Shown piece by piece: positions 7,001-57,692 of a DNA stretch of 64,000 bases. Within the stretch, counting starts at the first letter, position 1. Each line of letters starts with the position of its first letter. Below the pieces are notes generated by a model, which worked only from the letters and a program-made list of their open reading frames with translations, did not search any database and was not told the DNA's origin. The stretch comes from Marsupella aquatica (Eukaryota; Plantae; Marchantiophyta): the NCBI GenBank assembly GCA_973895155.1, contig OZ316896.1, positions 20,386,754 to 20,450,753 on the forward strand, read 5' to 3'. The translations under genes were made by a program, and so were the position numbers.

Positions 7001-7411
7001 ACAGAAGATGTAACTATTGAGCTAGCTCGGATTGAAGCAAGGATCTTCTAGAAGTGGAGAGGAGGTTAGAGAAGCCTTAGATTAGTTGAGTTGCATTGTA
7101 TTTAGAGATTTAGTGGACTTAGATGCACACCTACAATGGATAGTGGCATTCTACTTAAGATTTTGAGTTTGCACAAACTCAGATCAAAGACCGTAAATTT
7201 TATGTTTGTAATTAAGTATGGATTTGTTGTTTTTGGTAATTGTGAAAATGATGTTGAAAATATCCCAAGATTTTCATTGAAAGAATTATAATAGCAAAGT
7301 TCACAAAACATGTTTCATTTTTATATGTTTTTTTAAAGCACTTTTGGAAAAATCATGAAAATCTTGAAAAAGGAATTCGGGCCTTGGACTCATCCCTTAA
7401 GGCTCCATGTT
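4089..7411. mobile_element. Non-autonomous TIR element nested in the CACTA-1 transposase (Kolobok-like inner ends; superfamily uncertain)
   Basis: Imperfect ~38-bp TIRs: AACAAGAAGCCTTAAAGGGTGAGTAACAAGCCCAAACTC vs reverse complement of the right end AACATGGAGCCTTAAGGGATGAGTCCAAGGCCCGAATTC. Flanking CACT duplication at 4085-4088 and 7412-7415. Transposase coding sequence resumes on both sides. No recognisable transposase inside. Confidence 0.75.
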
Positions 7412-7975
7412 CACTATGTTGATGTCAACATGCGTGTTTTTGTGGCACCTGTTAAACGATCCTCCTCTTCTCTTTCCTCCATCCAAGTATGTGGACAAGT
7501 AGGATCAATGGTGGCCAAGATGTTACTACAATAAAACATACTCTCTGCTGCCAAGTATCCTGTAGCTATGCTTCCCTCCACCCGTGCACGGTTACGTACA
7601 TAAGCCTTCAACACCGCCATGTACCGCTCAAGCCAATACATCCATCTACAATGCACTGGACCTGCAATGGCAACCTCCCGCACAAGATGCACAAGTAAAT
7701 GAACCTGACAATCAAAGAAGGAAGGAGGAAGGGCTTTCTCCAACTTGCATACCACCTCAGCTGCCAATACCTCCATCCCAGAGATTTCTTCTACATATAT
7801 CTCCTTTGAGCATATCCATCTCAACAAACGACCCAATGACCAGATGACATCTTGCACTTCTTCACTCCCTATACCTATAATTGCCACTGGCAATATATGC
7901 TGCAATAGGCGATGATAGTCATGTGTCTTCAGATATCGTGGCCACTTGTGATTGTCCTCCATCCCAAAAGCTTTT

Positions 7976-10900: not shown

Positions 10901-12224
10901 GGTGAAGAGGCTGCCTTATGGAAGGACACCATTGGTGAGGGGTACATCAAGGCGTGGCAGGCCTTGGCCAATTTGAGGAAGCAGGGGAGCACTAGCACCA
11001 GGAGTACCCCGGTGAAGAAGAAGAGGAGTGAAGTGGCACTCACTCCAGTGGAGAGTGATGAGGAGGCCCACTCACGGGGCTCAAGCCAGGGCACCGTGAG
11101 TGAAGAGGAGGAGGATTAGAGTGGTCGTACGGACGTGGTTGTGCGGCCCCTAAACTTTCCAACTTTTTTGTGAGGGGTCACTCACGGGCTTGCTGGAAAG
11201 AGCTCGCGGAGCTGATTCCAACAAGGGGCGGTGCTCCTCAAACGGAGCCAGGATGAGCAGGTTATGGCCCGACGAAGTTGTGTTTATGGGATACAGAAAC
11301 GGCCATAACTTGGTCGTCCGATGTCCGTTTCGAGAGCGGTTGAGTGATTCGTGATCAGGAGGAGGAGAGATATCCAGGGGTGAACTCAGAAGTGCAAGTG
11401 GAGGGGCGCCTAGTTTTGGCCATTATGGGGTTCCTTGCAATTTCACGGTTCACAGAGTAATGTTGGGGCGCTGTCGAAGGCACCACCGGCCCATTGTTAG
11501 TTTAGGGTTTAGGGTTTTAGAAGCATGTGTGTGCCGCATGGTTTTAGTTTAGGGGTTTCTTAGTAAAGGGTTTAGCGGCGCCGCTAGGGAAGGCCGCCAT
11601 CGTTGTGGCCTCGTGAGGGGTGCTTTGGTGTGTTGTTTTGAGTATTTAGGGGGAGAGCCCCGGAGTAGTGAGGGGGGGAACTCAGTTTAGTGTTGTTATT
11701 AGGGAAGTTAGCTCATAGTCAGAAGGGGAATTTAAGCCAGAGTAGTGAGGTAGAGGTGTAGCGCTTGCCCCAGTGAGGCAAGAGTTGGGCAGACGGTAGG
11801 AGGCTGGGTTGTCCTTGCAATGTGTTACCACTTTTTGCCAAAAGATATGGATTTGGTGTGATTTCTCAAGTTTTGGTGTGGCGTTATCTTTTTCGGCTCA
11901 CAATTGTGTTCTTTCCCAAGAAGTGTCTAAGGAATACTTGCACGGATTGGTCGATTGTGTGAGTAAGGGGGTGGTGACAGCACTCCAGCGACCAGTAGGA
12001 GTGTGTGTGTGTGGCGTAGTCCATGGGACTTGATCAAAACCAGAGGGGCTAGTAGGTAGACTTGATCAAAAATTACACTTCCGGGAGCGGAATCAAACAT
12101 ACTCATCCTACGTGCAATAGAATCCTAATAGCGTCCCTCCACGTTCCCCGTCATACGATAACAAACGATTTTAGTAGGAGTAAATACGTATTTGTCGTGT
12201 AAATCGTTTGATAAGCAGGTGACA
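7976..12224. mobile_element. 4.25-kb TG..CA insertion with 5-bp TSD (probable ORF-bearing solo LTR or LTR-retrotransposon derivative)
   Basis: Starts TGTGACAGG at 7976 and ends GCAGGTGACA at 12224. TSD CTTTT at 7971-7975 and 12225-12229. Removing it restores GANLRK-AFGMED of the transposase. No gag/pol and no internal LTR pair seen. Confidence 0.85.
9267..11119 (+). pseudogene. Retrotransposon accessory ORF (plant-transposon-protein-like N-terminus plus coiled coil), one frameshift near 10180
   Basis: Overlapping ORFs 9267-10283 and 10184-11119. The C-terminal part is a heptad-rich coiled coil followed by a basic/acidic tail. Family assignment is by impression only. Confidence 0.55.
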
Positions 12225-14312
12225 CTTTTCGAAGGTTGGCACCATAGCCTGTAGGAAACCGCATCTCTCCTATACGGTTCCGAAATTCACGTCTTTGGCC
12301 AACACTCAACACCCAAGGAGCAGAAGGACGATTCTCCACACCTGTGATAGGATCAGTTGTCATCCAAAGATCTGGATGCATTTCCATCTCCTCGCATGCC
12401 TCCCTAAAATTAGTGTCCTTCTCCCCATAAAAATGCTTTATCAAAGCCTTCCCCACATTTCCCTCTATGTGCATGGGGTCTAAAAGATGGCGGATCTTCA
12501 ACTTAGATCAATAGGGCAAAGTGGCTAGTATACTCCACCTGGTCAAACCTGTCCTATCAAAGGTGAAGGAATCATTTGGGTCTGCCACCCTATCAGCTAG
12601 TGACTTCCAATGTGCAAAACTTGTTGCATCAGGAATTTCACGCTCATCACCAAATGGCATGTCAAAGGAGGAGAATAGAAGTGGGTCAAACCTCATCTCA
12701 TGCCCCATGGGAAGAAACTTTGTATGCCCAATATAAACAATCTTTCTAATCCATGAACAATATGTGGCCATGTCCTCTAAGCTTGGGCCACAAGTAGAGC
12801 AAGCTTTGTACCCCTGAGTTTGCAATCCAGAGACAAAACCAAACCCTGCTTACATAGAAGAAATCAAACCATGCAAACTTTATGTTAGGGTTGTCACATG
12901 AGAAACAACAATAGGAACTACACATTATTGAAGGGTTGCAAATGGCATGGAAGTCATCTTACCAGGATAGTCATGCATTGTCCAACATATGATCCCTCTC
13001 AATTGAAAGACACGTGGAAAACCTCTTGTAATTTTCCTACCATCATATGCCCACACTCCATTCCATAATTTTTGAAGTTCTCCAACCAATAGTGCCAAGT
13101 AAGTGTCAAAGTTCTTCACTTTTTTTGGACCTGGGATAATCAAAGATAATAAAAGGAACCCCTTCTTCATGGATAGCCATGGTGGGAGGTTATAATTCAT
13201 GACAACCACAGGCCAAACTGATGTAGGTTGCCCCTTTCCTCCAAGTGAATGAGGGCTAACTCCATGAGATGCCAATCCTAGCCTCACATGGCGAGGATCA
13301 TGTGCAAAGTCTGGCCATGTTGCCTCAATATGTTTGTGAGCAGGGGAGTCAACTGGCAACCGCATGACACCAGACTCTGATCGATGAGTCTTATGCCATA
13401 CCATCAACTCTGCCAAGTCAGAACACCGATACATGTGCAACAATCGAGGAATGATGGGAAACCAACGAACAACCTTCCTTGGCACCTTCTTTGTTAGCAT
13501 GTTGGGGTCATAGCGAGGCTCATCACATGTTGTACATTGTGTCATGTTTGCATTGGCCCCATGAAATAACATGCAATCATTCACACATGCATGAACAATA
13601 TGATATTCCATGCCAATAGATGAGAGAACACTTTTTGCCTCCTTCCAAGTTGCTGGCAACACATTCTCAGTGGGTAACATAAGGTCATGGCAAAGTGCAA
13701 ACATATCAGATAACAAGGCATTGCTTGCCTTGTGTTTGGCCTGTAGGTTCATCAACCCCAAGATGGCTGAAAGACGACTCAAACGAGCACCCTCATAGAT
13801 AGGTGTTCGGGCATGTTCCTCTGCTTCTTCCCATTGGCGTTGTCCCTCAGGGGTATGTCTTGGGCGTGGATCATTGGGGGGCACCTGCCCTTCATTGGGA
13901 AGGTCATCACCAGGGTTGTCGGCACCAAACCAATCAACCATAAAGTCATCCATGGCTCTATCCTGGTCATCAGTTACTTGTTCATCCGTTTGAGGTACCT
14001 CTTCATCAGGGTTACTGCTTCCACTAGCACTTGATGAGGAGTGTGACTCTGATCCATGCCCTTCTTCTGGCATACCCATTTCTTGATATGTTGCTCTCAA
14101 TCTCCGTGGTAACATATTTGGAGAGGGTCGCACATTCTAAAAACAAAGCAAACAATTGAAAGTTATATTGCAAAGAGAACACACACAAAAATGGGCTAGG
14201 GGTGTGCAAAAATGAAATAATATTGGTTGTGGTGCAAATACAAAATGTGGCCAAAGGCCATATGTAGTGTCCTTTGATATGCAACATACCACCTATGACC
14301 CTTAACTTAACC

Positions 14313-15465
14313 CTAATCCCACTCATAGTGAGTAAATAACTCGTCCCCTGAGTTAATGGTCCTCGTTGCTACAACTAGGCAATGGTCATGATGATATGTC
14401 TGGCCATAAGGTGCTGGCGGAGGACCCTCAATGAAAACCCACTCACAATTTTGCCTACGCTTAGGGCGAGTCCCCACGGTACTGTTTATGAAACCAACAA
14501 TATTCCCAGTCCGTATGGGGTCCCCATCTATGACACGCTGCTCACTATACCTTCTAGTGTTTCCATCAAAAGTATCCATGTCCAATGCATAAGTCTTCCA
14601 CTCAGGGTGTTGTGCAAGGATCATGTTCCAATGTCTTCTCTTGTAGATGGGTCCACCATAAGGAAACAAAGTAGGCCCCTCTCGGCTGCGTCCACCTCTA
14701 CCACTCTTGGCGTCCACAATGATGTCCTCACAGGCAAAAACTCCATAGCCATGTCTATCCCCAAGTGTGGAAGGTTTGATAACCCAACGTCTACCCCAAA
14801 CCTCTACCTCCTCACCATAGGAAAGCTCTTGTGGCAAACCAAGAGTCTCAGGATCCCAGTCCTTGATGATAGGGACACATCTGCCAGTGAACTCACAATC
14901 ACCCCACCTACCCGTAACCACTGCCTTGTACAAATCAGTATCCCCTCGGGCCCGCCTCTTGGAACGCTGTCTCCCTCTTGGGACAATAGCCTCAACCCCA
15001 ACTTCCCTAGGACTGGTGGGCCTTGCCGCTAGACCCAAGGCTTTTGAGAATGCATTGCCTATAGCATCTAGAACACCTTGTGATGGGACATAGGGTGCTT
15101 GTGCCGCAGGTCTAGGCCTATTGGATACCTATTCCACCGAAACCAAAACAAACAAAAGTAGGTGTGAAATTAAAAACCTTCAACCATTGAGTAATGGGAA
15201 TAGGGTAGGAAAACTAAGGCATAACACTTACCATATGAGATGAAGAAGCCCCTATCGTATGATGTCCACAACGCCCATATCTCTCAATATGTTGGGCACA
15301 TATGTAAGATTTTTGGGAAACCTGACCCACACATCTGGAACATTCACAAAGTTGACGGGGTGGACCGCGAGGAGGAGGTGCGGTCGTGTGATGTTGAGGT
15401 GGAGGTGGTGTATCTTCATCAGAGGAGGACGAGTCTGTGGTGGAGATTTCAGAAAATGAAGACAT
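14313..15465 (-). CDS. CACTA-borne SET-domain protein (exons 15465-15232 + 15128-14313; 349 aa predicted)
   Basis: SET motifs GYGVFA, FPYGG, IDGDPIRTGNIVGFINS, VVATRTINSGDELFTHY. N-terminal exon has CECSRC..H. Phase-0 GTAAGT donor at 15231 and AG acceptor at 15130-15129. Frame is open throughout. Confidence 0.88.
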
Positions 15466-16129
15466 ATCCCCTGTAACAAGATATAATTAAAATGGGCATG
15501 TTATGACCAAAACATACCACAAAATGATATAAATCAAAGTTCCCAAATAATGATGACAAGAAACCCAAACCAAAATGACCATAGCAATAAAAAAGGTACC
15601 TTTATGAGACCCGGGCTCAGCAGTGCCAATAGGTCTTGTGGCTCTAAGATAATTAATGAACCCAATCTGAAAGTATGAGGGAAAAACTGCAACCATTCCA
15701 TGTATATGTAAGCACAATAATCTGGACCAGACAAGAACAAAAAACCCTACATACATGTCCCCTTTATACATAGTGGCAACCAAAAGTGTTAAGTACATGA
15801 AAGGAACACTTGAGCCGATCATGCAATGTTTACCTTTCAGATGCCCGGGCTCTCACAATGCATATGCATTAGTATCAAATCATCAAAAAGTGCCGCACCC
15901 TACAAGCTATCATATATTCCCCTCCTTTGTTAGCAAAACCCATGCCAATCCCTTTTTGATTCATAAACCCAATGAACCTCTCTTAAACCCAAAAGGCTGC
16001 AATATAAATCTCATGAAACCTTGCTTTGTCTTATCCAAACTTTCAACCCCAAACCGCATCCTACCTATTAAACCTAAATCTGACTTACACACAAACCCAA
16101 ACCTTTCTTCAACCCTAGAGACCTTTCTA

Positions 16130-16300
16130 TTAAAAAACCCCAAACCCTAAAACCCTAAACCCAAACCTTACTTATTTCTTGTAAACCAAATCCCACACCT
16201 TTATTATTTCTTCTAAACTAATGTAAACCCAAACCTTAGCCTAAACCAACACCATACATAACCCATTAACCTGAAATCTGCCTAACCCTTCAAACCCGCC
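16130..16300. repeat. Degenerate telomere-like (AAACCCT) tract between the divergent CACTA-1 genes
   Basis: AAACCCCAAACCCTAAAACCCTAAACCCAAACCTT and further AAACCC units; a homologous longer tract is present in CACTA-2. Confidence 0.6.
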
Positions 16301-16765
16301 TTCAACTATTATCTAACACCCAAAACATGGCCAAAAAGCATTCCAAATATGAGTATAGAGGGGTCCACTTCACCTTTGAAAAAAACCCTTTCAAATGAAA
16401 CCAACATTCCCCCCAGGACGAGTTGCCAATGTCTTGCGAAGCCGCTTCCTTCGCAAATACCATCACAAATTAGAATTGAGTTTTGCGAAGCTGCTGCTTT
16501 CGCACGACCTTCAGAAAAACAGAGCCCGAGAGCATTTCTGCAAGAGAGCAAAGGTGTTGCGAAGCCTTTCATGTTGCAATGGTTTCGCAAAATTGAGAAA
16601 CTACATGCGAAACTAGAAGGATCGCAACTTGCAAAACAGGTTGCTTCGCAAGTCTTTCCCGCTTGTACTTTTGCACTCTGCCGCGGCGTACTCAGCGGCA
16701 TTTGACAAATTTCAAGCGTAGGGAGGGAGAAGGGAGCTTGCGCGCGCTCGGGGGGTGGCTTAGCT

Positions 16766-18722
16766 ATGGATTCCAGTGGAGCAAATGGAGGTGATTTGGC
16801 AGGGGTGAGTGACAGTGGCAATGGGAATGAAGGCAATGGGGAGCAGGAGAGGAATCGATGGACCGATTTGATGGCTGAGCACCTCAATGCAGCACAGTTG
16901 AGCCACTTAGATTTGACTACACCAGCAGGGATTGCTTCTTTGAGTGCAATCCTAGGGCAAGCCTTGCAAACGGGAGTAGATGCAGGGAACATTGCAAGGG
17001 AGGAGGAGCAAAGGAGTGCAGCTCAACAGAAGGCAAGAGAGAAGAAGCGTAAGAAGGAGGAGAGGGCCAAGGCAGGAGTAGTCTCACCTGCTGCCCTAGA
17101 AAAGAAGAGGAGGAGAGAGGAACGAGATGAGATAAGAGCACAGCGGGAGGAGCAGCGAAAGAAGGAGGAAGAGAGGAAGAAGCTGCCTATGATTGCCTTG
17201 ATCGAAGGCATTCCTACTGAACTGGCCTACACCGGGGCAAAGAGCACTATCAGGCTTATGGTGCGCTCCAATTTTGCACGAGGAGTTGAGTGGGGGAAAC
17301 TCAGCAAGGCAGACCAGAAGAAAATAATGAGTCAAATCAAAGATTCATTTCGAAATGGAGCAGAGATTGATGAACAGTGGCTTGCAGATAGAATTTCCAA
17401 TTCAATGTCTCAAGCACGGTACCATGATAGGAAGAAGGTAAGGGCCTACCTGGCAAACTTGGAGGAGTACAGAAACATGAGGAGGCCACTGCAATTCACT
17501 GAGGACGTGTGGAATGCCTTTTACAAAGTGGAGGTGCAGATGAGAGCTGCCAGGAACCTTCTCTTCTGGAAGGAGATGGAAGCCAAGGCACAGAAGGCCG
17601 GGAAGTCCGACCGAGACCTCAAGGCAATGGCTGAGAAGGTGTCTCACATGCAGCACATTGTGGATGAAGTGGGGGCACCACCCCAAAAATTCATCCTTGC
17701 AGCTGAGCGAGTCAGCAAATGGCCCAAGACCACGCACAAGATGGGCCAAGGTGGACTTCCCGGCCTCAAAGCACACTTTGTGAGTGGGCCCTCTCCTCCC
17801 CTGCTTCTGTTTCCTTGCTTTCAATTGCTATCCAAACCTGCAATGCCCCCCTGCATACCTCTTGTTTCTTTCTTACGGCCTGCCTTGTACTTTAGGTCAC
17901 CCTGACACATTGCGTGCCTTAGAGATTTCTCGGATTAAAAAAAAACAGAGTTTGCGAAGCTTTTGCGATGCGGGTTGCTTCGCAAATGTTTCGCAAAGTC
18001 TATCATGGCATTTTTTAAAGTTGTAGATGCGAAGCTATTGCGAACTAACCCACTTCGCAAACTACTTCGCAAACAGCCAGTTTATTTGAATTTGCGAAGT
18101 GGGGAGTTTTGCAAGTGTGTATTATGTTTAAAAAATACTGCTAAGGGTTATTGAGCCCAGTTTTGTGTTAGGGGGCACCCTATTAGCACCTCCATGCATT
18201 TTTCTTGGGTTTATGGCATATTAACCTCGATCGATTTTGGTTTTGGAATGTTTGGTTGTGGTAGTATAAGAGGTACCGCAGGAAGATAACAACAAAAGAG
18301 ATGGAGATAGGAGCTGCGCATGGAGCCAAACATCTCTTTGACTTGGTTGACGCAAAGTTGGCGACTGTAAGTGCATGTATCCCCTCAGTTTTTCCCACCC
18401 AATCCACTTATCTTTTCATTCTGTAAACCTAAACCAATTTGGCGTTGTGCTGTGCAAACAGGATGATGAGGATGCCAGTGATACCAGCAGCACCGATGAG
18501 AACAATGAGGGGACCATGACAAAGGGGCCCACGGTAGGAGGGAGTAGTGGATCTGGACCAGTAGGAGGAGTTTCCCAGCAGGAGGGGGAGGAAGAGGATG
18601 AGGACGAGGAGGAACCAGATGTGGAGGAGCAGCCAGCACCACCTCCTGTGCCACGTCCGGATCGTCGCAAGAGGGACAAGGGGAAGAGGCCGGCGACAAG
18701 GAGTAGCAGGACCCCATTCTAG
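16766..18722 (+). CDS. CACTA second gene, TnpA/Ptta-like (exons 16766-17779, 18265-18366, 18462-18722)
   Basis: Three GT-AG exons with the same structure as in CACTA-2. Motifs WGKLSK..IKDSF..DEQWLADRISNS..RYHDR and HKMGQGG resemble the plant Ptta/En/Spm family. Acidic then basic C-terminal tail. Appears intact. Confidence 0.75.
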
Positions 18723-19407
18723 AGCTTGGTGGTGTAGTGCCTATGGGATGCCCATTTACTTAGTGTAGTATATAGTTTTGATATGGGTAGTCTTATAGGG
18801 ACCTAGCTTGTCATATGACACCCATCTAGGGTTTAGGGTTTAGGAAACCCTAATTTTTGTGTACCTATCAATTTTCTATAAAGCCATTTTGATTCAGACC
18901 TCATTCTCCGTGTTGGACAACAAGACCCCAACTATAATTCAAAACTCTAAATCTAAACCCTAGCCTCAAGACAGCTTGCGAAACCTATGCGAACAACCCA
19001 AATCGCATATTTACCATACTGAAGGTATCGCAAACATTATGCAAACCACATAAGTTCACACAAATGCGAAGCGATCTTCATGGCATAACTACCATTCACT
19101 TAATATCGCAAACATATTTCCAAACTCCTGGGATTGCAAATATTGAACTGCTTGATTATTATCGCAAGCCTCTCGCGACGCCCATGGAGTCGCTTAAATG
19201 TGAGTCCTTTGCGATTCTATTAGTGTCGCAAGTTGCGAAGGCGTTGCGAAGGTCTTGCGAAAGACCGGATGCGAACCTTTGGGCTTCGCAGTTTGCGATT
19301 CTATTGCGATGCGCGATACTTTGCAAAGACGAGTTTTGTTTTTTGATTTCCTTTGTTGTTTGCTATGCTTTCAAGTTCGCAAAGGTGTAGGTAGTGTTGT
19401 AGTGACT

Positions 19408-19528
19408 CCCATGGGAAGCTCCTTCCAGACTCCCTAACATGCAGTCCTCATCACCTTGGGGCACAACAGCGAGAATTTTTTAAAGATATTTTTACAGACC
19501 CCCATGGGAAGCTCCTTCCAAAATCCCT
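19408..19528 (+). repeat. ~94-bp tandem duplication; the first unit (2114-2179 + 19408-19434) is split by CACTA-1
   Basis: TAACATGCAGTCCTCATCACCTT(A/G)GGGCACAACAGCGAGAAT..TTTAAAGATAT..TTAC(G/A)GAC(T/C)CCCATGGGAAGCTCCTTCCA occurs across the insertion junction and again intact at 19435-19528. Confidence 0.9.
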
Positions 19529-43779: not shown

Positions 43780-44534
43780 CACTACTACATATTGGCCCCT
43801 TTTGCGAAGCTTTTTTTTGACGCCGGGATGGTCTTGCGATGTCATCAACTTCAGATATTTTGTGATCAAACACGCATCACAATAAACCATGCTCACAGGT
43901 TCGCAACATGGTGTTGCAAAGCTAAATACCTCGCAATTTGTTTGCGATCGGATTGAATTCGCAACTCTTTCAGATACTATTCATCTCGCAAAGTATTTGT
44001 GGATCCACGACCATCGCGACTGCATTTGGATCTCTTTTGTTTCATAATTTAGCGATAATAATGTACTCAAATATATATTGTGAACCTATTAGCTTCGCAC
44101 AATATTGTGAAGCATAAATAGTCGCAAGTTACCGAATCCAGTTGATTCGCAAAGTTGAGAACACATTGGCATCACAATTACCGATGGTGTGTTATTCACA
44201 AAGTGTTCAGAAGTTGCTTCTTGACAAGCTTGAAAATGTTTTGCAAAGAGAGTTGTTTGAAAATTTTGTAGAATGGAAATGTTTGAGAGAGTTTCTTTAC
44301 AAGATGGAGAATGCATGTGTTTAGGTTACAGCTAGGGTTTTCAAAAAGGTGGCATGCATGAGGATAGCTTTGGAAACGGCTAAGGTTGCATATATAACAG
44401 TGAGATGAAATTTCAAAGTCCAATTAAGTGTTTGTAAAACAAAAGAAGAAAAGTAATATGTTAATATAAATAAAACCATGATAGTTAGTTTAGGGTCAAA
44501 TTCTGGGCCCACAACAAGTTTTACTACTAGTGCA

Positions 44535-47500
44535 TCAAACCTGGTCCTCATCCTCGCCTCCATTTGACACAATAATAACGTCAGGTTTTTCCGAGATAAT
44601 GGAACGGGACCGTGGCACATACGGTATAACAACTGACCACTCTAGGTCTGGTGGGTACGGAATATAGAAACACTGCTCAAGGTGACTTGGGAATGTAAAT
44701 GGTTCAGATGTTTGCCAATGAGATGGTTGAAAGCTAGTTGTTGATGTCTTCAGTCGAGTAAACCCACACTCATCAAGAAGTACCGTGCGATTATCACCAA
44801 CCAGGTGAATTTTGAACCACTTACACTTGAAGACATACTCTTCAAATTTGGAATCGGCATCATAGGATATGATCAAGATCTCCTCAATCTTCCCATAGTG
44901 AGGCACCACATCTCTGATCACATTAGTGTCATGACGGCTACTTTGTGAATCTTGCATGAACTGCCCTTGAACTCCACAATCAAAAGTTCTTCCCCTTTTC
45001 TCATCAAGGTCAGAAATCCTGAAATGCCTCCCTTGTGTCCACATTGCTGTTCTGGTTTGAACAAGTCTTAAAGGACCATGAACAATTGTTCGAACCTCAG
45101 GAGTCATATCTGGAAAATGTGATACATTCTCACCTTGGGCCACCATAGCATCCAACTGAAGTACTTTCTCCTTCATATACTCAAGGAACTTTGGAAAGAT
45201 CCTTGGGCGACGACTTTCCCTCTTTGCATCTTCATAAAACTCTCTCCAATCTTCCATCACATTGCTGTTACTCAACATGAAAGTACTAACCTGTGTCAAC
45301 TCCACTGCGGTTAGTAAGCGTGTTTTTTTTGCACCTGTTAAACGGTCCTCCTCCACTTCCCTCTCTTCCATCCAAGTGCGTGGAAAACTAGGATCAATGG
45401 TAGCTAAGATGTTACTACAATAAAACATACTCTCAGCTGCCAAGTATCCGGTTGCCATGCTCCCCTCCACTCGTGCACGGTTCCGTACATAAGCCTTTAA
45501 CACGGCCATATACCTTTCCAGCCAATACATCCACCTACAATGCACCGGACCGGCAATGGCAACCTCCCTCACAAGATGAACGAGAAGATGCACCTGACAA
45601 TCAAAGAAGGAAGGAGGGAGGGCCTTCTCCAACTTGCATACCACCTCTGCTGCCAATACCTCCATCCGTGGTATCTCTTCTTCATATATTTCCTTTGAGC
45701 ATATCCATCTCAACAAAGTGCCTAGTGACCAAAGGGCGTCTTGCACTTCTTCACTCCCCAAACCTATGATTGCCACAGGAAGTATATGTTGTAGTAAACG
45801 ATGATAGTCATGTGTCTTGAGATACATTGGCCATTTATGACTGTCCTCCATCCCAAAAGCCTTACGTAGATTGGCACCATAGCCTGTAGGAAACCGCATT
45901 TGCCCTATGCGTTGTCGAAACTCTCTTCTTTCACCAACACTCAAAACCCATGGAGCTGAAGGACGATGTTCCATCCCTGTGGATTCATCAACTGTTATCC
46001 ATACATCTGGATGTCGTTCTAGATCCTGGCATGCCTCCCTAAAATTAATGTTCTTTTCCCCATAAAAGTGCTTGATCAAAGCCTTCCCAACATTTCCCTC
46101 TATATGCATGGGGTCTAACAAGTGATGAATCTTCAACTCAGGCCAATAGGGCAAAGTGGCCAGTATACCCCACCTTGTCAATCCACTACCATCAAATCCC
46201 ATGGCATCTTCAGGGTCTGCCACCCTATCAGCTATGGACTTCCAATACGAAAATATTGTGCGGTCAGGTATCTCACGCTCATCACCATTGATCATGTCAA
46301 AGTCTGAAAACAAAAGGGGGTCAGACCTCATGTGATGCCCAAGTGGAAGAAACTTGGTATGACCAAGGTAGATTATCTTGTGCAGCCATTTTGAGTACTT
46401 GGTCATATCGTGAAGGCTTGGACCACAAGTGGAGCATGCCTTGTACCCTTGAGTTTGGAACCCAGAAACAAACCCAAACCCTGCTCACAAAATAACATTC
46501 TCAATTAGAGTCAAAGGAATTGAAAAGTTCATGTACATAGAATTAAAGAGGGACTTCCTTCCAAACAAACTTGATCTCCAATACATGAAAAAAATACAAA
46601 TCCATACCACTCACCTGGATAGTCATGCATGGTCCACATAATGATTCCCTTCAATTGGAAGACACGTGGTAACCCTCCTGTAGTTGTCCGACCATCATAT
46701 GCCCATACACCCCCCCATAATTTATGGAGTTCCCCAACCAAGAGCGCCAAGTAGGTGTCCATGTTTTTTACCTTAGATGGACCTGGGATAATCAATGATA
46801 GCAATAAGAATCCCTTTTTCATGGACAACCATGGGGGAAGGTTGTAATTCATAACAACCACCGGCCAAACCGAAGTAGGGCGCCCTTTCCCTCCAAGGGA
46901 GTGTGGGCTTACCCCATCTGATGCCAACCCCAACCTCACATGACGAGGGTCACGTGCAAATTCTGGCCATTGTGACTCCACATGCTTGTGAGCAGGGGAA
47001 TCAACTGGCAACCGCATGACACCGGCCTCTGATCGATGTGTCTTATGCCATACCATCAATTCTGCCAAGTCAGAACATCGGTACATGTGCAACAATCGAG
47101 GAATAATAGGAAACCAACGAACAGCTTTTCTAGGCACCTTTGAGGTCAACATGTTGGTTTCATATCGAGGCTCTTGACAAATTGGACACTCAGTTGCGCT
47201 GGCATTGGTCTCATGATAGAGAATGCAGTCATTCACACAAGCATGAATGATATGGTATTCCATGCCAATGGATGATAGAACCCTCTTTGCCTCCTTCCAA
47301 GTTCCTGGCAACACATTTTCACTAGGTAACAAGAGATCATGGCAAATTGCAAACAAATCTGATAGTAGCGCATTGCTTGCCTTGTGTTTTGCCTGAAGAT
47401 TCATCAATGCCAAGATGGCAGATAGTCTATTCAAACGAGCACCCCCATAAATAGGTGTTCTAGCATGTGCCTCAGCTTCTTCCCATTGTTTTTGTCCTTC

Positions 47501-49115
47501 AGGTGTACGTTGAGGCCTTGGATCATGTGCAACATTTGGTGGAGGGTCTCCTTCATTGGGTGGGACACCTCCTTCACCACCAATGTCTACACCAAACCAA
47601 TCTGTCATGAAGTCATCCATGGCTGACTCTTGGTCTTGCATGACCTCATAATTTGTCCGAGGTGCCCCTTCATCTGGACTGTCATTATCATTGTCACTTG
47701 ATGAGGAATCTGCTGATGATGTTTCCCCGTCTTGTGGCAAGCCCATTTCTTGATATGTAGCTCTCAACCTCCTTGGCAACATATCTTGACTAGGCCGCAC
47801 ATTCTATAGAAAATACAATAAAGTATTCACAAGGAAATTAACGCCAAATATAGTAGTGCTCGAAACATATTATTAACAATATAAAAAGAACATGTCATTA
47901 CAAAACATACGTTCACATACGATGAACGTATAATACATGTCCCTAAAGTAATCCTAATCCCATTCATAATGTGTAAACAACTCCTCTCCAACCAGAATGG
48001 TCCTATTAGCTACAACTAGACAATGGTCATGATGATATCTCTGCCCATAAGGGGCTGGAGGGGGACCATCAACAAAAACCCATTCACAGTTTTTCCTACG
48101 CTTAGGCCGGGTCCCCACAGTACTGTTGATGAAACCGGCAATATTCCCACTACAGATGGGATCACCATCAATTATACGCTGGTCACAATACTTTCTGGTG
48201 CAACCATCAAAAGTATCCATGTCCAATGCATAAGTCTTCCACTCAGGGTGTTGAACAAGGATCATGTTCCAATGTCTCCTCTTGTAAATGGGTCCACCAT
48301 ACGGGAACAACGTTGGTCCATCTGAAGAGCGCCCTTTTCCACCCATATCATCCACAATAATGTCCTGACAAGAGAAAATCCCATACCCATGCCTCTCCCC
48401 TAGGGTCGAACTCTTGACAACCCAACGTCTTCCCCAAACTTCTATCTCCTCACCATAGGTTATATCACATGGCAAACCAAGGCACTCCGGATTCCAATCC
48501 TTTATGATAGGAACACACTTCCCTGTGAAGGTACAAGGGCCCCATCTACCATCAACCCTACAAGTGTACTGATCCACTTCCCCTCTAGGCTGTCTTTTTG
48601 ACTTTTTTTTCCCTCTTGTAACAATACCGTCACCCTTAATTGTCCCAACACTACCTTGCCCTGCTGCCACTAAACGAAAAGCTTGTGAAAGTGCCGAGCC
48701 TATAGCATCTAGAACTCCTTGTGAGGGAACATAGGGTGTTGGTGTAGTGGGTGTAGGCCTACTGGATACCTATAGGAAGAAATGGAACCAAGTGAGTGTG
48801 ATGAACCTCCCAAATTTTATTTTATGCTACCTAGCAAGATTTACAAAATAAAATGGAAATCACAGTAAGTTTACAACTCACCATACGGGATGAAGAAGCT
48901 CCCGGTGTAAGACCTCGATGTTGGCCATATCGAGCAATGTGCTCCGCACATACATATGACTTTTGGACAACCATCCCCACACATTTTTTACAACCACAAA
49001 GTTGGCGTGGTGGACCACTAGGTCGACGTACGGTTGGTTCAGGTTGAGGAGGAGGATGACTTTCTTCATCGGAAGAGGAATCTGATGTGGTGGAAGTTGT
49101 AGAGGATGAAGACAT
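44535..49115 (-). CDS. CACTA TnpD-type DDE transposase, apparently intact (exons 49115-48882, 47803-46615, 46480-44535; 1122 aa predicted)
   Basis: LASDG, MHDYPG and MHIEGNV (putative D-D-E) are intact. The exons sum to 3369 nt, are in phase, and contain no stops. Confidence 0.93.
47954..49115 (-). CDS. CACTA-borne SET-domain protein (exons 49115-48882 + 48769-47954; 349 aa predicted)
   Basis: GYGIFS, FPYGG, IDGDPICSGNIAGFINS, VVANRTILVGEELFTHY. N-terminal exon has CGCKKC..H. Donor GTGAGT at 48881 and acceptor AG at 48771-48770. Confidence 0.88.
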
Positions 49116-49548
49116 CTGACAAGTATAGCAATTGGAAGGCGATTAGTAAAAACTTCACCAAAACCATCATTGATAATCCCTACCTAAACATATTAAAAAG
49201 AATTGACAGAAAAATACCTTTATGAGACCCGGGCTTAGCAATGCCTTGACGGATCTTGTGGCTCAAATTTCATGAACCAAATCTGGAAGGAGGGGAAAAT
49301 CTGCCAATATACAATGAATTAAGCCATGCCTTATGGTGAACCAGAAAAAAAGGATGATAGATTGTAACCCTCCATATTTACAGCAATGACTAGAAATGCA
49401 TGAGAAAATGTTATACCTTTCAGATGCCCGGGCTCTCGCAAGGCATTATCATGCATTAGCCAAAACTTTAAAAAACATGGGGAAGTGCCCTACAATGCCA
49501 AAGAGTTTTCCTCTCCATGTTAATGAGATAGACAAAGAAATATAAGTA

Positions 49549-50340
49549 ACCCAAACCCTACCCTAAACCCAAACCATGAAATGAAACCCTTCATTAAAAC
49601 CTAACCCAAATCCCTCAATCACCCTAAACCCTTACCCTTATCCTAACCAATACCCAAATCCCTCATTAAAAATTCAAACCTTTACCCTAAACCCAAACCC
49701 CTACCCTAAACCCAAACCATGAAATGAAACCCTTCATTAAAACCTAACCCAAATCCCTCAAGCACCCTAAACCCTTACCCTTATCCTAACCAATACCCAA
49801 ATCCCTCATTAAAATTTCAAACCTTTACCCTAAACCCAACCCAAATCCCCCAATTACATATAAAACTCTTACCCTATCTACACCTTACTTTACCTATATA
49901 GGCCAACCCCCACCCCTATAGTTATTCTAAACTTCACCCTAACCCCTAAATTGAGGCCCTTTTTTAAAACTTAAGCAAAAATTGTACCCCCTCAATTAGA
50001 ACCAAATCCAACCCTATATCATGTTACACCCCAACCCAAACACTTACATTAGAAACCCAACCCCTTTAAAAAACCACAATTAAACCCCCCAACTAAAAAC
50101 CAAACCCAATCCCTTTAAAAAACAACCACAATTCAACCCCTCAACTAAAACCAAACCCAACCCCTGTAATTACTCACAACCTAATGCAAACCTCTACCTT
50201 GAACCCTAAGCCAAACCCATTAATTTAAACCCAACCCTTTTATTCCAACCTAACCCAAGTTTTAACCCCCTTAATTAAACCAAATACTCCTAGATTAAAA
50301 CCAAATATAAACCTAACCTTTAATTAAACCCAAACCTTTG
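49549..50340. repeat. AAACCC(T)-rich telomere-like tract including a 2 x ~143-bp tandem duplication (~49558-49840)
   Basis: CTACCCTAAACCCAAACCATGAAATGAAACCCTTCATT... occurs at ~49558 and ~49701. The + strand is nearly G-free. Confidence 0.8.
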
Positions 50341-51014
50341 TTAACTTATATTCTAGTTATCCTTACAACCCAAACATCCATTGACACCCCTTCCATGTTA
50401 ACTTATGGGCACTTAACATACCTTAAATGTCGTTTGACAAACCTTAATAGCCGTTTGACACCCCAAAGTGTTTTCCAACCCTAAACCGATAAGACCTGCC
50501 TCGCAAATTATTTCACAAGTTAGAGAATATTTTTGCGAACCTAAGACCTTCGCACTTGCTTCGCAAAAACAGAGGCCGAGAACAATTTTTTGGGTCTTCT
50601 GCGGGTTGCGATGGCTTTGCGAAGGGAATAGATTCAGAAGTGCCTCGCAAGTTGCGAGACTATTTGTGAGGGCGCGGGCTTCACAGTTTCCCATGCGTAT
50701 GTCATCGCAAACCCGTTTTTGAACGGCGTAAACATCGGCGGGAGCTCGCATTCGGGCTCATTTCAGTTTTTGAGCGAGACGAGAAGGGACGGGGCGCGCG
50801 CAACAGTACGAGGGAGACTGTGAGAGAGGGGAGCTATGGCTACCGGTAAGGGGAGTGGAGGGCAAGGTGGTAGTGGTAGTGGTAGTGGCAATGGGGGAAA
50901 TCCAGAGAAAGAGAAGAATGCCTGGGCAGACTTAGTGGCCCAACATCTCAGTGCTGCACAATTGGGAGAAGTGAATCTCAATTCTCCAGCAGGGCTTGCC
51001 TCTTTGAGTGCCAT

Positions 51015-54000
51015 TGTGAGTATTGGGTAATACCGAAAACCTGAAATTACTGAAAAATTTAAACTTTTTACAGTATTTAAGCCTGCTGTTGCTGTTAAAA
51101 TGCCAAGTGTAAATTACGGGTTTACGCTGTTACGGGTTTACGGGTTTATGCTGTTACGGGTTTACGGGTTTACGCTGTTACGAGTTTACGCCAATACGGG
51201 ATTACGGCTTACGCCTTACGCGTTTAAGGAAAGTTCACGTTACGGCGCTACGGCTAACTTCGCAACGGGACTTAGAAACGGATTGGGGACTTCATACCTT
51301 GATAGGAATCAAGCACAGAGTTCAGGCGCTCACTCCTGTATTTTCACCACCCCTATTCACTTGCTCTTTCTCTTCGAAAGCAACCTTCGCAGCAAGCAAA
51401 TCACCGTTGCAGCTATGGCGAACCTGGGTGCTGAGGAATAGTATCAAACTGAAGCTCTAGCAGTCTCAAAAGTAGTGGCAGCTCGCATACCACGAGCGCC
51501 TGATAGTCTTTCTAATTTACAAGACTCTTTACAGCACTTAGGATTGGAGCGCTTGCTCAGGATCCCCTGGAATGTCGAGCTCGACTCCTACTTGCAGGAT
51601 TTTGTGAAGGGGACTATCATCCCGATTGAATTCAGGCAAACGATTCGAGCTCACCCCAGCCTGTGGACTGTTGAGCAAATTGCTTACGCCTTTGGATGCC
51701 CGTCAGAAGGAGAGGCGTTATATTCCAAGAAGCAGGACTTATCTGCTCCATACTTCTCAGGAACTCGAAATGCCAAGAATGGTTGGAACTTGTCCCAGTG
51801 TACTTATCCTGAATTGAGAGTGCTCATGGAATTTCTGGTACCCATTCTTCATCCGAAAAAGCCAACTCTCTGTCCTGTGGCCTTGGCTAACACCATTGTA
51901 GCTGCTCATAGTGGAGCTATAAAAGTAAATTGGGCCCTACTTCTGTTTAATGTAATGAAGGATCAAGTAAGGAGCTTGGAAGCAGGGAGGACCACTTGCT
52001 TACAGAATTATCTCTCTCAGCTCTATTATACTCATGACTGTTTATATCTGGAGGAAGAGACAGAGAGGGGGTTACTCCTGATTGACTTGGGTATTGAAGA
52101 AGAAATTCCTATGGAGGACATTGTACATGTCACCCCATTGAATTCGAATGATAAGAACGTTGAGGAGAATGCTGATGTTCCTATGGAGGATACTTCATTA
52201 GAAATCCCTACACATTCTCCTATGCATAGCAGGGAAGTTGTTTGCCAATCAATAAGTAATGAGAATTTCCCTAGCCGGACTATGGATGCAGATCCACTAG
52301 AAGCTGAAGAAGTAAGGAGCATTCATCAACAAGACGATGATGCTACACCAACTGATGCTGCTCCTCATGAGACCACCAGGTCCACTCCTTCGAAGGCAGA
52401 GTCGAATCAGCAGCTTATTGATAAGTTGATATCTCTCCTCAGTTGTAGTGATGATGGACTATATGATGCTGTTAATAATTTGAGAATGGAGGCTGTTAGT
52501 TTAGGATCACCATTTCATGATCAGCTAAGCCCTGTCAGAATAACCTTTCCCCCAAGAGAACCAGCACCAATGGAGTTTGTGATCTGTACTCTTGTCACTG
52601 TACACCCCCCTCCCCTAGAAACAAGTGAGCCCATTCCAGTAACAGATAGTATCAGCTGTGTGGCTATTGTGGATGACTTGTTAGAACTACTACAGTGTGA
52701 ACCTCGACAGATAGCATCTGTGGTCCGCAACTTGGTCCAACAATGTCCAACTGCTAGTCCTACTTCTAGCCCAGGTTCACAACCTTACAGCCCTGATTCC
52801 AACTACGAACCCACAGAAGGACCCACCTACAATCGGTCACAATATGAGCACCCTTTTGACAGAGAAGATCTACCTGAAGACTCTGATCCACCCTCAGATG
52901 GTGAAACTTATAGATCTTATGATAATTCTCTTGAGTCATCCCCAAGGCAGGGATTTGAAGATGTTGATACTGCCTTAAGATCCAATCCAAACTTAGTAGC
53001 AGTTGTCACTTCATCTACTCAAACACCTCGGAATGCCACCATCGAGAGTAGATACCCGAGACATCCCGAGTCCCAAGTGCACAGGTATGTGGAGACCTGT
53101 AAGATTATGCAGGCCAACAGACCACCGGTTGGAGAATTTTGGAAATACTACTATCTCAAGAAGACAGAGCCCAGTTATATCTTCGACCTCAGGTGTTTTG
53201 GAACTTCCAGACTGGAGATGGCACAATTCGATGAGTTCTGGACTGACTCTCTCTATTTCCGACCCATTCTTGCTGTGATGCTACTTCAAGGAGATGTGGA
53301 GGTGGAGGATTCAGATTTAGTTCTGGCATATTTTGGAAATTTGGCAGCTTATGCCCTAGATTTTGTGGTTTCTTTTCTCATGCAGAGTAAGAAATCTACT
53401 TCTCCCCAGAACGCTTACCTTCCTCGAGAGCCCAAGGTTACCCTTGTTTCAACCAGTTCATTAGCTGAGAAACAGAGAATCTGGAACAATGTCACCTCTC
53501 AAACTCTGGCCAACTTCAATCGGTATTTCAGAGATGTCAAATGGAGGCTTCACCCTTTCTATTCCAGGATGCTGAACTCTGATGAATTTCTATACCATTA
53601 TCCCCAAGTATATGCTGCTACTTGCAATAATTATGACGTGATTGGGATATATAGAGAAGCTCTTTGAATAGACATATGTTATCTAAGGAGAAGAATGCCC
53701 CTGATGTATCCTGAAAGGCAATTGAGATGCCTACCCTACTCTCGAGGATCCCCACGCCAGGCTGAGCTGATGGAAGTTACTCAAGCTCGGACTGTTACCC
53801 TCGTGGAGCTACTCGAACCAGAAGATATCCGACAACAAGCTTGAGGCAGAATCTAAGTCTTTTTAGTTAAGTTTTAAGAATAGTGCATCTTTCCCTATTT
53901 TTCAAAATGTGTTATAGAGCTTTAAAAGCTATGAAACTTATTTAGTGTGTAGCCTGTACCTAGGAAAACCTACTGGCAAAATTTCAGAATTTTCCGAGCC

Positions 54001-55044
54001 AGGAGTAGAAAGTTAAAAATAGTTGAATTTGGTAAGTCTTTAAGTCTACCGCATTCACCAGATTACGCCTTTACGTTTTTACGCTTTTACGCGATTACGT
54101 CTTTACGCTTTTACGCTTTTACGGGTTCTTACTTAGCCATTTCCCGGCTTTTCACTTACTGAATCGCTGTTTTGACTTTTTGAGGACTATGAAGAGGCAT
54201 GTCTCTTCGACCCTATGACCTCTTACCCTATAGGATTTTACTATAAGACCCCTCCACCACTAGTGTAGAAGTATGGTAAAGTCTAGCAATTTTTGCCTTT
54301 CCTTGGTGTTCTGCCAGTTGATCATGAATGTTAAGAGTTCGAGATCAAGCTTGACACCAGGAGAAGACTTTCCTCCTTCTTGTGGTTTAATTCTTTGAAT
54401 AAATCATAGGAAGTAAAATTCCTTTTGTGCAAATCTTTTGAGTTGTGATGACAGATTCCTTGTTGGTGACTCATTGCAATCTCCTGAGTTCTTAAAGTTA
54501 ACTCATTGAGTTTAAGTCTCATTGAAATTGATGGATTTTCTTTCATGTTGCTTAGTACCATCTAAATGTTGAAGTAGCCACTCTTTTAGATCTTATCTGA
54601 GTACCACTTAGAAAGAAAGGATAAGACATGCTGACGACATTTTAAAAGGTACTCTAGTAAGCAATTTAGATCTGAAAAGCAATATGGATTTGAAACCTTA
54701 AGTCTTTTCATTTTGACTTATGTCTAAGGAGTAACCTTGGTCTATTCCAGACTCCCTTAGCGTACTTTGAGATTATTTTCTCTTGTGTTTTGTTAATCAT
54801 TCCTTTTTCATTAATTTATGGTTACCCAATGCTGAGTTATCATTGAAAACTACTCACCGCTGTGGAGCGATCTTCAAAATACCTTATTAAAGTAATCAAT
54901 TCTGATTACTATGTGTTAAAGAGAGTTCTTAAATTCTCATTTGTGTTTTTATGTATCAAACCAACCCCATCTTGTTCTTTACGGGAACGAATACCGAGTT
55001 TGAAGACCTTTAAGTGTGTTTTTGGTTCTTCATAGCAAACTACA
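51015..55044. mobile_element. 4.0-kb TG..CA insertion (probable ORF-bearing solo LTR or LTR derivative); TSD imperfect
   Basis: TGTGAGTATT...AAACTACA. Removing it restores SAI-LGQVLQTG of the TnpA-like gene. The flanks GCCAT and TGATT are not a clean 5-bp TSD. TTACG micro-repeat arrays lie at ~51113-51250 and ~54062-54125. Confidence 0.7.
51415..53844 (+). pseudogene. Retrotransposon accessory ORF (~800 codons) with two in-frame stops (51439-51441, 53665-53667)
   Basis: 730-aa open stretch 51475-53667. The frame is continuous from ATG 51415 and on to TGA 53844. N-terminus LGLERLLRIPW..TIRAHPSLWT..EFLVPILHPKKP..VNWA resembles hypothetical TE proteins I recall from liverworts (not verified). 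Confidence 0.6.
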
Positions 55045-57692
55045 TGATTCTTGGACAGGTTTTGCAAACTGGGATTGTAGCAGGACAAGCTACTAGAGAG
55101 GGGGAGGAGAGGGCCGCAGCTGAAGAGAAGGCTAGAGAGAAAAAAAGGAAGAGAGAGGAAAGAACTAAGTCGGGAGTTGCCTCTCCTCAAGCCCTAGAGA
55201 AGCAGAAGAGAAGAGAGGAGAGAGATTCAATTCGAAAACAGAGGGAGGAGCAACGTTAGAAAGAGGAAGCAAGAAAAAAACTTCCATTCATTGCCTTGGA
55301 GACGAGTGGGACTCCAACTGAGCTAGCATATGCAGGGGCTAAGAGCACAATCAAGCAGATTATCACAAGCAATTTCTCACGAGGCATGCAGTGGGGGAAG
55401 ATTGAGAAGGCAGAGCGAAAGAGGGTCATCAACCAAATCAAGGATGCATTTCGCAATGGGCCTGACATAGATGAGCAATGGTTGGCAGATAAGATTTCAA
55501 ATTCTCTGTCCCAAATGCGATACCATGACAGGATGAAGATTAGAGCCCACCTGAAAGACTTGAGATCATACAGGAACTTGCGCAGACCCCTCCACTTCAC
55601 CGAGGACATCTGGAATTCGTTTTACAAGATTGAGGTGCAAATTAAGGCAGCTCACGAGTTGGAAGAGTGGAAGGGCAATCTAGATCGAGCCTTGAAAGCA
55701 AAGGGGGCCGGGAAGCTCCCCCCTGACCACGACCTGAAGCCACTTGAGCAGAAGGTAGCTGAGATGCAGAAGGTGGCCGACCAGGAGGGAAAGCCACCCA
55801 AGCGTTTCACAGATGCAGCCAAACGAGTGAAATCCACCCCCAATCCAGTCCACAAGTTGGGTCAAGGCGGGCTCCCCGGCCTCAAGTCACACTTTGTGAG
55901 TGCCTCTTGCTCCTCCCTAACCTCTCTATTCCTTTCAGAGTTGTGCAATGCAAGTGAATGACATCCCCGAAGGTTCTTGCTGTTGTGCATGCTTGCTTGG
56001 TTACTAGTTTAGGGCAACTCTGACACTTAGAATTTCTGGCAAATTTTTAAAAACTCTCGGGAACACAGTTTGCGAAGGTGTTGCGATGCGTATTTGTTCG
56101 CAAACCCCTCGCAAAGTCTATCATAGACTTTTTCCATTTCAATTTTCCGATGCCTTTGCGAACAAATGCGCATCGCAAACTCCATCGCAACGCCTTCGCA
56201 AAAAAAGGTGGTTTGCAAGTTGCTATGCTTATAGGTTCGCAAATTTGAATTTTAAATTATTTTTGGGTCATGTTTAGTAGTTGAGGATTTAGGCGTCACT
56301 TGTGGCTATAGGGTATGCTTAAGGGCAAATTTAACCAATTTTAATTGGTTTTATGCATGGCAGTATCGGAGGTACAAAAGGAAGATATCAAAAAAGCATA
56401 TTGAGGTGGCGATAGAGCATGGACGAAAGTACCTCTTTGCGATGGTAGATGCCGAGTTGGCTACTGTAAGTGTCTAAGTGTGAACCATATGATTAGCATG
56501 CGAACATTGTGAGTGACCCTTTATGTCTTGCGGAAACTAATGATATGTAATGGATGCAGGATTCGGATGAGCCTGAGGGGTCGGGTGCTGATGTGACCAG
56601 TAGTGATGACGATGAGGGGGCTACTCCTGGTACTAGTGGTGCTCGGGGGGGGAGTAGTCGTGAGGTAGGTTCTTCCCACCGTGGTAGTGGTGGTAGTCGT
56701 GTGTCATCAGCACACGTTGATGACCAGGGGGAGGAGGAGGACCCTGAGGATGAGGAGGAGGAGCAGGAGGAGCCAGAGGAGCAGCAGGAGCAGGAGCAGG
56801 AGCGCCGACGGCCATCACGCACCCGTCACCAACAGGATCCCCGGAAGGATAAGGGCAAGAAGCCAGCCAAGAAGCCAACCAAGAGGAGCCGCAAGAGCCC
56901 ATTCTAGTTATTTTGTAGAGATACATGCATGAGAGTGACTTGTCATGCCGGAGCTTAGGGTAGGAAGAGGCAGCATAGGTTTAGAAGGGCGGACCTAGCA
57001 TCAGATATTTCCCCCCTCTTGTCCATGTATAGGGTTCTTTGAAGCCCTATCATTTTGTTCATGCTTTTCCATTTTATAAAACAACAATTTTGCCTTCCAC
57101 ATTGGGTTCCAAGGAAAACCCCTCGCAAATAATGTATTGAATCCTGTGTGATCATAATTTTGCGAACCCTTTAAGAACTCATTCCCATCGCACAATATTA
57201 ACCCCAAGGCGTCGCACTTTTTGAGTCAATTAACTTCAAAACTTCAGATCCAAATATGTCGGGTTTTTGTGATACTTCTAGGATCGCACTTTCCTAATCG
57301 CAACCGTTCACAAACTTCTGAAATCACCGGTATCGCTCTTTGTCATACAATCCCCATCAAAACAATTGAACCAGTATCAATCGCAAATATGATGCGATGG
57401 TAAATCCGTCTCAAATATTGACGCCCGCGCGGGACGTGTGCGTGTATGTTTGCGAACCTTATGCGACGTATAATGGATCGCAGAAGTATTGAATATTGCG
57501 AACCTCTCAGCTTCTCAGTTTGCCATGATGTTGCGATGCCGTTGCGATGGTCCGCGTGCAAAGTTATTAGGTTTGCAAAGTGCGAAGGGGGTGCGATGCG
57601 TGTATGTTTGCAATAGCCAGAATTATGAAAATCAGGGGCTTGTTAGTTGCGATGAGATTGTCTTCGCAAAACCGGCCGATAGTGTTGTAGTG

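Follow-up and report, generated by a model that had tools for sequence, protein, structure and literature searches.

Two copies of a CACTA transposon in the liverwort Marsupella aquatica belong to a bryophyte family that probably uses a single splice donor in two ways, with its first coding exon joined either to an exon encoding a SET domain (349-aa product) or, past that exon, to the transposase (1122 aa). The DNA itself establishes the element, the SET fold, the selection acting on the SET sequence and the layout of the exons. The family is real, under selection and widespread in bryophytes, and its nested-exon design is well supported by the DNA. The analysis covered a window of 64,000 nucleotides (contig OZ316896.1 of assembly GCA_973895155.1, positions 20,386,754 to 20,450,753 of the forward strand), and all coordinates refer to this window.

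Both copies, termed E1 and E2, are complete CACTA elements with CACTA...TAGTG termini, which the accessible text of PMC4158355 gives as a feature of canonical plant CACTA/EnSpm elements, and both are flanked by target site duplications of 3 bp (ACT/ACT for E1, GGC/GGC for E2; Table 1). Repeats of the TTCGCAA type number 37 in E1 and 31 in E2 compared with 9 in the intervening 24 kb, and they cluster close to the element ends and also at internal sites. The internal clusters (16434-16645 and 17952-18092 in E1; 50533-50704 and 56070-56236 in E2) sit in the divergent promoter region and in the accessory-gene intron of both copies and may be candidate binding sites for self-regulation. Across 3.3 kb, E1 and E2 are 73.7% identical. 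Their introns have an identity of 0.50-0.54, against a shuffled background of 0.49-0.51, and their exons are conserved at the codon level.

Table 1. Coordinates of the elements and of their predicted parts in the window
Feature	Positions	Strand	Remarks
E1, whole CACTA element (copy 1) including nested insertions	2180..19404	.	ends CACTACAACA / TGTTGTAGTG; ACT on each flank
E2, whole CACTA element (copy 2)	43780..57692	.	ends CACTACTACA / TGTTGTAGTG; GGC on each flank
E1 first coding exon	15232..15465	-	234 nt; phase-0 donor at 15231
E2 first coding exon	48882..49115	-	Ser/acidic leader and CxCxxC...H module; 234 nt; phase-0 donor at 48881
E2 predicted untranslated 5' exons	49218..49441	-	two conserved donor-like sites (after 49417, after 49218); same motifs upstream in E1
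E2 predicted short intron, exon 1 to SET	48770..48881	-	112 nt; GC 0.33; identity to the E1 intron at shuffled background
E1 SET exon	14313..15128	-	intact; first Met at codon 169
E2 SET exon	47954..48769	-	271 codons and TAG; GxG at 48388-48380, Asn at 48127, terminal Tyr at 47968
E2 T-rich spacer, predicted to serve as 3' UTR in the SET form and to end intron 1 on its 3' side in the transposase form	47804..47953	-	150 nt; T fraction 0.46
E1 transposase exon 2	12963..14136	-	first catalytic Asp replaced by His (ASHG), from sequence
E2 transposase exon 2	46615..47803	-	N-terminal half of Tnp2; ASDG and HDYPG motifs; Transposase_21 E 3.8e-39
E1 transposase exon 3, in pieces	3071..12845	-	about 12227-12845, 7432-7996 and 3071-4088; stop near 12508; insertions
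E2 transposase exon 3	44535..46480	-	rest of Tnp2, DUF4218, DUF4216 (Pfam)
E1 divergent accessory gene	16766..18722	+	first exon open; no Pfam match
E2 divergent accessory gene, no known family	50836..56908	+	split by 4-kb insertion (about 51016-55049); stop codon; no Pfam match

The donor of exon 1 reads ATG/GTGAGT in E2, where an AG immediately precedes the exon-1 ATG, and ATG/GTAAGT in E1, and two acceptors follow it in each copy. The proximal ones (48769 in E2, 15128 in E1; AG/GTATCC) yield, when joined to exon 1, 349 aa and a stop, and the distal ones (47803 in E2, 14136 in E1; AG/AATGTGCG) open the transposase frame. The initial annotation had placed the 234-nt exon 1, the phase-0 donors at 48881 and 15231 and both acceptor pairs exactly, and the 349-aa SET product that it claimed, with its own stop and a frame intact in both copies, was reproduced. 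Its statement that exon lengths are identical holds for E1 against E2 and fails beyond them, the family of Sphagnum-named proteins having 77+266 aa.

The intron between exon 1 and the SET exon would measure 112 nt in E2 and 103 nt in E1 and offers no usable in-frame ATG, and the first Met of the SET exon is found at codon 142 in E2 and at codon 169 in E1, in both cases past the GxG motif. With no Met ahead of GxG and no usable ATG in the intron, the splice from exon 1 to the SET exon is nearly forced and is considered highly probable. When AGs were ranked by upstream T content, the distal acceptor came first of 78 and the proximal one third (tied) in E2, and the two took ranks 1 and 2 of 83 in E1, the distal one leading. 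A strong conserved donor was sought inside the SET exon and the spacer and none was found; the exon-1 donor scores 5 of 6, and the four conserved phase-0 GTs in the SET exon reach 0-2. The distance from the SET stop to the distal acceptor is 150 nt in E2, 176 nt in E1 and about 146 nt in a third case, so that the frame of the spacer is not kept, and neither a positionally conserved donor nor a conserved poly(A) hexamer was found in it. Translation through the short intron or past the SET stop can be dismissed, because some lineages have lengths that would break the reading frame. The layout exceeds chance, given a SET match above the Pfam cutoff, top-ranked acceptors and introns at background level next to conserved exons. 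Of the shared-exon arrangement described initially, the nested SET exon in phase is present in the DNA, and the splice switch is the part that is predicted from it.

The identification of the SET domain in the initial annotation was confirmed, both copies matching Pfam SET (PF00856) above cutoff (E 3.8e-5 and 1.4e-5) and the structure searches with Foldseek and VIA returning SET folds. SET was the sole Pfam family matching within an 84-member alignment of relatives, 65 of which matched it at E<=0.01. A model of the SET core based on this alignment reached a pLDDT of 91.4 and a pTM of 0.87; an earlier model from an 18-row alignment (pLDDT 37) was unusable. The matches that Foldseek listed for the model are SET domains (best E 6e-7), and its best VIA match had a Z of 12.0 and an rmsd of 2.6 A over 130 residues, with many SET families tied; over both searches the SET matches ranged over Z 11-12, rmsd 2.2-3.1 A and 118-135 residues. 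The model also matches SET domains among viral structure models. By sequence, the closest solved chain was LegAS4/RomA (E 2e-7; next best 1.4e-3), solved SET chains being reached with a broad profile only and a narrow profile matching none.

The positions of cofactor binding and catalysis are well kept in the covering rows of the 84-row alignment (G128 92%, G130 98%, Asn 90%, Tyr268 95%). Many SET domains have an RFINHS-type motif, with a His after the conserved Asn and an Arg alongside. Here the motif reads GFINS, in which the Asn is kept, Arg and His are replaced and a Ser takes the place of the His, and active LegAS4 reads RYINFS at this site, also without the His. A GxG cofactor motif and a C-terminal catalytic Tyr are features of SET methyltransferases according to the accessible part of PMC10653858. 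The post-SET segment, which closes the cofactor and lysine pocket, is absent from both copies and from most close relatives, the chain ending 3 residues past the Tyr. The dN/dS ratio, proposed initially as a check, was 0.157 for the SET core, next to 0.156 and 0.199 for the transposase exons; over all pairs it was 0.16-0.32 at a synonymous divergence of 0.76-1.37. The SET core is constrained as strongly as the transposase and is under purifying selection. The exon encodes a protein of SET fold, a predicted lysine methyltransferase, and the SET form is likely to be an active enzyme.

Exon 1 is less constrained (dN/dS 0.41, E2 vs E1). Its E2 product resembles the Pfam family Transpos_assoc (PF13963; E 0.0086, 16.7 bits, below the cutoff of 27.7), as does a Riccia protein (P0099, E 0.031), two of 12 aligned members matching and both weakly. 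A search of the Atlas with the module gave no usable match, and a homodimer prediction for exon 1 scored 0.00 with the exon's own fold uncertain, which speaks neither for nor against dimerisation. In the preferred reading, exon 1 would encode the transposase's own N-terminal Cys/His module. The three transposase exons of E2 join into an open frame of 1122 aa with the ASDG, HDYPG and WLER motifs, and its only Pfam matches are Transposase_21, DUF4218 and, under its cutoff, DUF4216. The E1 transposase is dead by its Asp to His exchange, stop codon and insertions. The first 8 codons of exon 2 have a pN/pS of 0.57 (95% range 0.30-1.08), and a distant Riccia family shares the N-terminus that exon 2 encodes (P0166, E 2e-5). 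The weak Transpos_assoc match, the top-ranked T-rich distal acceptor, the lack of a strong conserved donor in the SET exon and the conserved start of exon 2 together favour a splice from exon 1 to the transposase, which is predicted with good confidence.

One metagenome scan yielded 40 related loci, mostly near-identical copies of the family matching Sphagnum-named proteins, so that the independent test of the splice sites comprises only 3-4 lineages. Among the 19 loci reaching 300 nt or more upstream of SET, 16 had exon 1, and among the 26 reaching 260 nt or more downstream, 23 had the transposase; all six loci lacking one or the other carry truncated SET pieces. The GT of the exon-1 donor was found in 17/17 loci, a phase-0 AG stood 12-18 nt ahead of the SET match in 22/25 (two mutated, one ambiguous), the distal acceptor AG was intact in 21/23, and a stop codon followed the SET end in all 22 loci in which stop and acceptor were readable. 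Donor and both acceptors keep phase in moss-type relatives. One locus (L040) had no SET match at 1e-4.

A word search among 644 candidate proteins found 41 relatives, the best being a 351-aa Calypogeia fissa model (66%) and a 343-aa Sphagnum family, and a profile search found 132 representatives at E<=0.001. Where organisms could be named among 29 distant or unnamed proteins and one Sphagnum protein, they were Riccia sorocarpa, Calypogeia, Sphagnum and, with a single remote protein, Ginkgo. Of 228 stored proteins, 26 have the Cys/His module joined to SET and no transposase, at identities down to about 30%; gene models from Calypogeia, Sphagnum and Riccia (30-66% identity) are among them, as is the unnamed contig protein P0058, which holds module and SET within one frame. 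Other contig-type proteins run directly from exon 1 into the intron, which suggests that such calls are unspliced. An exon 1-transposase protein without SET was found in 0/228 stored proteins (most of them retrieved through SET), an exon 1-transposase junction in none of 10 matches from 35 candidates, and the exon-2 N-terminus in none of 498 long candidates.

The SET family has diversified to about 25% identity, and in mosses as in liverworts it is tied to this module and transposase. A tree built from 75 of the 84 rows, after removal of 9 short ones, places E1 and E2 together with the Calypogeia protein (97/88). A remote and well-supported clade contains a Ginkgo biloba model (P0168) and two unnamed proteins (P0107, P0121). 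Synonymous divergence is 0.76-1.61 between E1/E2 and the moss-type copies (L004, L007, L014), little above the 0.74-0.86 between E1 and E2, and given the liverwort host this could point to transfer between mosses and liverworts. Viral contigs were searched for relatives and none were found; a Paenibacillus genome gave a weak 58-residue match (31%).

The same data can be read without a switch. If exon 1 served SET alone, the transposase would start at the Met at codon 8 of exon 2, by means of an upstream untranslated exon, a second start or a two-frame message, and SET would be an ordinary separate cargo. This Met is kept in E1, E2, the moss-type family and Riccia P0166, conserved donor-like motifs do exist upstream of exon 1 (in E1 at 15834 and 15600, the first motif also in L007), and stored proteins lack an exon 1-transposase form, with the retrieval bias given above. 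Against it, exon 1 resembles a transposase-associated domain, a promoter would hardly fit into the spacer of 150-176 nt, in which no donor is positionally conserved, and four Riccia proteins (P0101, P0133, P0141, P0123) align by eye to the exon-2 N-terminus without Met8, an alignment not significant by HMM. Such a separate start is considered unlikely. A single SETMAR-like fusion of exon 1, SET and transposase, made through an internal donor or read-through, is suggested by six gene models that link SET pieces to transposase (P0027 from Sphagnum; P0100, P0101, P0123, P0136 and P0141 from Riccia), but most of these cut SET at differing places, a usual result of gene prediction on broken copies. 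The stop after SET in 22/22 readable loci, the varying spacer length and the missing strong internal donor make a fusion very improbable. CACTA elements often capture gene fragments, and the SET exon might be such a captured host fragment without function. The selection test largely refutes this, as low dN/dS ratios persist in all pairs despite high synonymous divergence, and a family that has diversified this far and is still linked to module and transposase in mosses and liverworts leaves a mere passenger hardly credible.

A further alternative accepts the switch and questions the enzyme: the SET fold could be non-catalytic, acting as a SAM or lysine reader or as a decoy, or the isoform could act as a brake by diverting transcripts and the shared module. 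The missing post-SET tail and the deviant Asn-His motif fit this view, and inactive methylase domains in DIRS1 elements provide a precedent in the available text of PMC4738411. However, no columns are better kept across members of 22-80% identity than those for cofactor binding and catalysis, and LegAS4/RomA, which lacks the same His, is described in the accessible part of PMC10653858 as an active H3K14 methyltransferase, albeit one with a post-SET segment. This alternative as a whole is considered improbable.

Under the preferred reading of a splice switch, a SET sequence would have entered the intron behind exon 1 and would act there as an alternative last exon of the transposase gene. By default the short splice (103-112 nt) would be made and give the form with Cys/His module and SET as the predicted major product, and the long splice (about 1.1 kb, with the stronger acceptor) would give the transposase as the minority. 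Competition between the two products is proposed to limit transposase output. By analogy with the anti-silencing factors TnpA and VANC, the SET form may methylate a histone lysine at or near the element's own chromatin and keep the element transcribable; a histone substrate and a methylation that serves the element are put at slightly below even chances, and the element's own proteins are the second guess for the substrate of the predicted enzyme. CpG and CHG values are 0.27-0.38 and 0.59-0.68 in the element, compared with 1.02 and 1.04 in a host gene. This depletion indicates that the lineage was methylated over time and did not escape DNA methylation in the long term, so that any protection by the SET form would be partial or temporary. 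A broader scenario, considered less likely than not, is that a CACTA lineage of land plants, found in mosses and liverworts alike, makes a histone methyltransferase of its own by means of an alternative last exon in transposase intron 1, that the shared module recruits the enzyme to the element or transpososome, that splice choice balances the protective mark against jumping, and that the active site of the tail-less SET may have to be completed by the transposase or by the divergent accessory protein.

Transposons carrying SET are already known, and what appears unusual here is the nested-exon design. Within the EnSpm/CACTA superfamily, SET cargo is published for Plavaka PAG2 of red algae (bioRxiv 10.1101/2025.02.11.637652). 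As far as the accessible text of that report goes, PAG2, like E1 and E2, has a SET domain (PF00856) and chromatin modification is proposed for it, but its accessory gene fuses an N6-adenine methylase (PF01555) to SET. In E1 and E2, SET has no methylase partner, lies inside the transposase gene and accompanies a transposase of Tnp2, DUF4218 and DUF4216, which is not of the Plavaka type in a comparison of Pfam matches rather than a transposase tree. The published SET cargo weakens the initial view that SET is no standard CACTA cargo. Neither a SET in a canonical land-plant CACTA element nor a SET exon sharing a transposase exon was described in the titles or opening abstracts that full-text searches listed, a scope that leaves Repbase Reports, most subscription journals and bioRxiv supplements outside. 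A survey of 962 Repbase Spm protein structures reports various accessory domains in its available part (bioRxiv 10.64898/2026.08.24.746577), and its supplements could include the present family. HarbingerS, oomycete MuDR and Helitrons/Helentrons carry SET genes as well (PMC12730594, PMC4067079); in the accessible text, HarbingerS, MuDR and Helentrons resemble E1 and E2 as DNA transposons with a SET methyltransferase gene and belong to other superfamilies, and the Helentron SET is a separate intronless ORF resembling Clr4, with no exon shared with the transposase described.

Maize En/Spm and Arabidopsis EN/SPM3 produce TnpA and TnpD from one gene by alternative splicing, and the accessory factor TnpA, like VANC, has anti-silencing activity, as described in the available portions of PMC13547354 and bioRxiv 10.64898/2026.08.24.746577. 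Those portions match the proposal in that one CACTA transcription unit gives transposase and accessory regulator by splicing. TnpA is there an HTH DNA-binding protein, reportedly confined to flowering plants, whereas the predicted alternative product of E1 and E2 has an enzyme fold, and E1 and E2 have in addition an unrelated accessory gene in head-to-head orientation. In CSB-PGBD3, according to the accessible text of PMC2268245, an alternative 3' terminal exon within an intron captures upstream coding exons in frame. This is the mirror image, a transposase in a host-gene intron there and an enzyme exon in a transposase intron of a mobile element here. LegAS4/RomA (PDB 8sr6, 5czy) is among the top fold matches of the SET exon and also lacks the His after the Asn, but it is only about 20-24% identical, and it has a post-SET segment, absent from the SET exon, as well as ankyrin repeats required for activity (PMC10653858, accessible part). 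The match tells neither the substrate nor the origin of the transposon SET.

SET genes are known from several transposon groups, and in the accessible reports their function is proposed only. The family described here is compact, diversified across bryophytes and strongly selected, and E2 has an open transposase together with SET. One small protein and two junctions thereby make it testable whether a transposon writes its own histone marks. The family also bears on gene annotation: a single Sphagnum cluster of 'SET domain-containing' gene models has 360 members, and hundreds of such Sphagnum models, like others from Riccia and Calypogeia, probably represent transposon products and not host methyltransferases.

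The accessory gene lies head-to-head with exon 1 in both elements and has same-position homologues in 8 of the 40 metagenome loci. Its ORF was searched for a TnpA-type identity and gave no Pfam family match and no usable Atlas match. The insertion that splits it in E2 (about 51016-55049) shows a possible ATT duplication and tandem TTTACGGG-like repeats at both ends, and contains a 741-codon ORF (51442-53667) without Pfam and PHROG matches. In exon 3 of E1, an LTR-like insertion (about 7997-12226) has TG...CA ends, an AAAAG duplication and two ORFs without clear family (9252-10283, 10178-11119), and more inserted DNA lies at about 4089-7431. Telomere-like TTTAGGG/GGGTTT tracts are abundant 5' of exon 1 (49560-50400 in E2, 15960-16300 in E1). 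A 65-nt direct repeat, 94% identical, lies beside the E1 ends (2114-2178 and 19435-19499), which identifies the E1 insertion site as locally duplicated sequence.

The insertion of E2 split the coding frame of a further gene (58385-57693 and 43779-41360, minus strand), the flanks being in frame across the duplication. The upstream part of this gene has an ISGQHS motif, which looks ParB-like, and its downstream 610-aa ORF has weak DNA methyltransferase matches (Pfam N6_N4_Mtase E 1e-4, PHROG E 6e-7). The interrupted gene may be related to bryophyte N4/N6 methylases, or a larger mobile element may carry it as cargo. Close to it are a NIF-type phosphatase ORF and a weak Myb/SANT-like ORF (39735-40628, 38197-38844), and an intronless host PIG-C/GPI2 gene is located between E1 and E2 (27636-28796).
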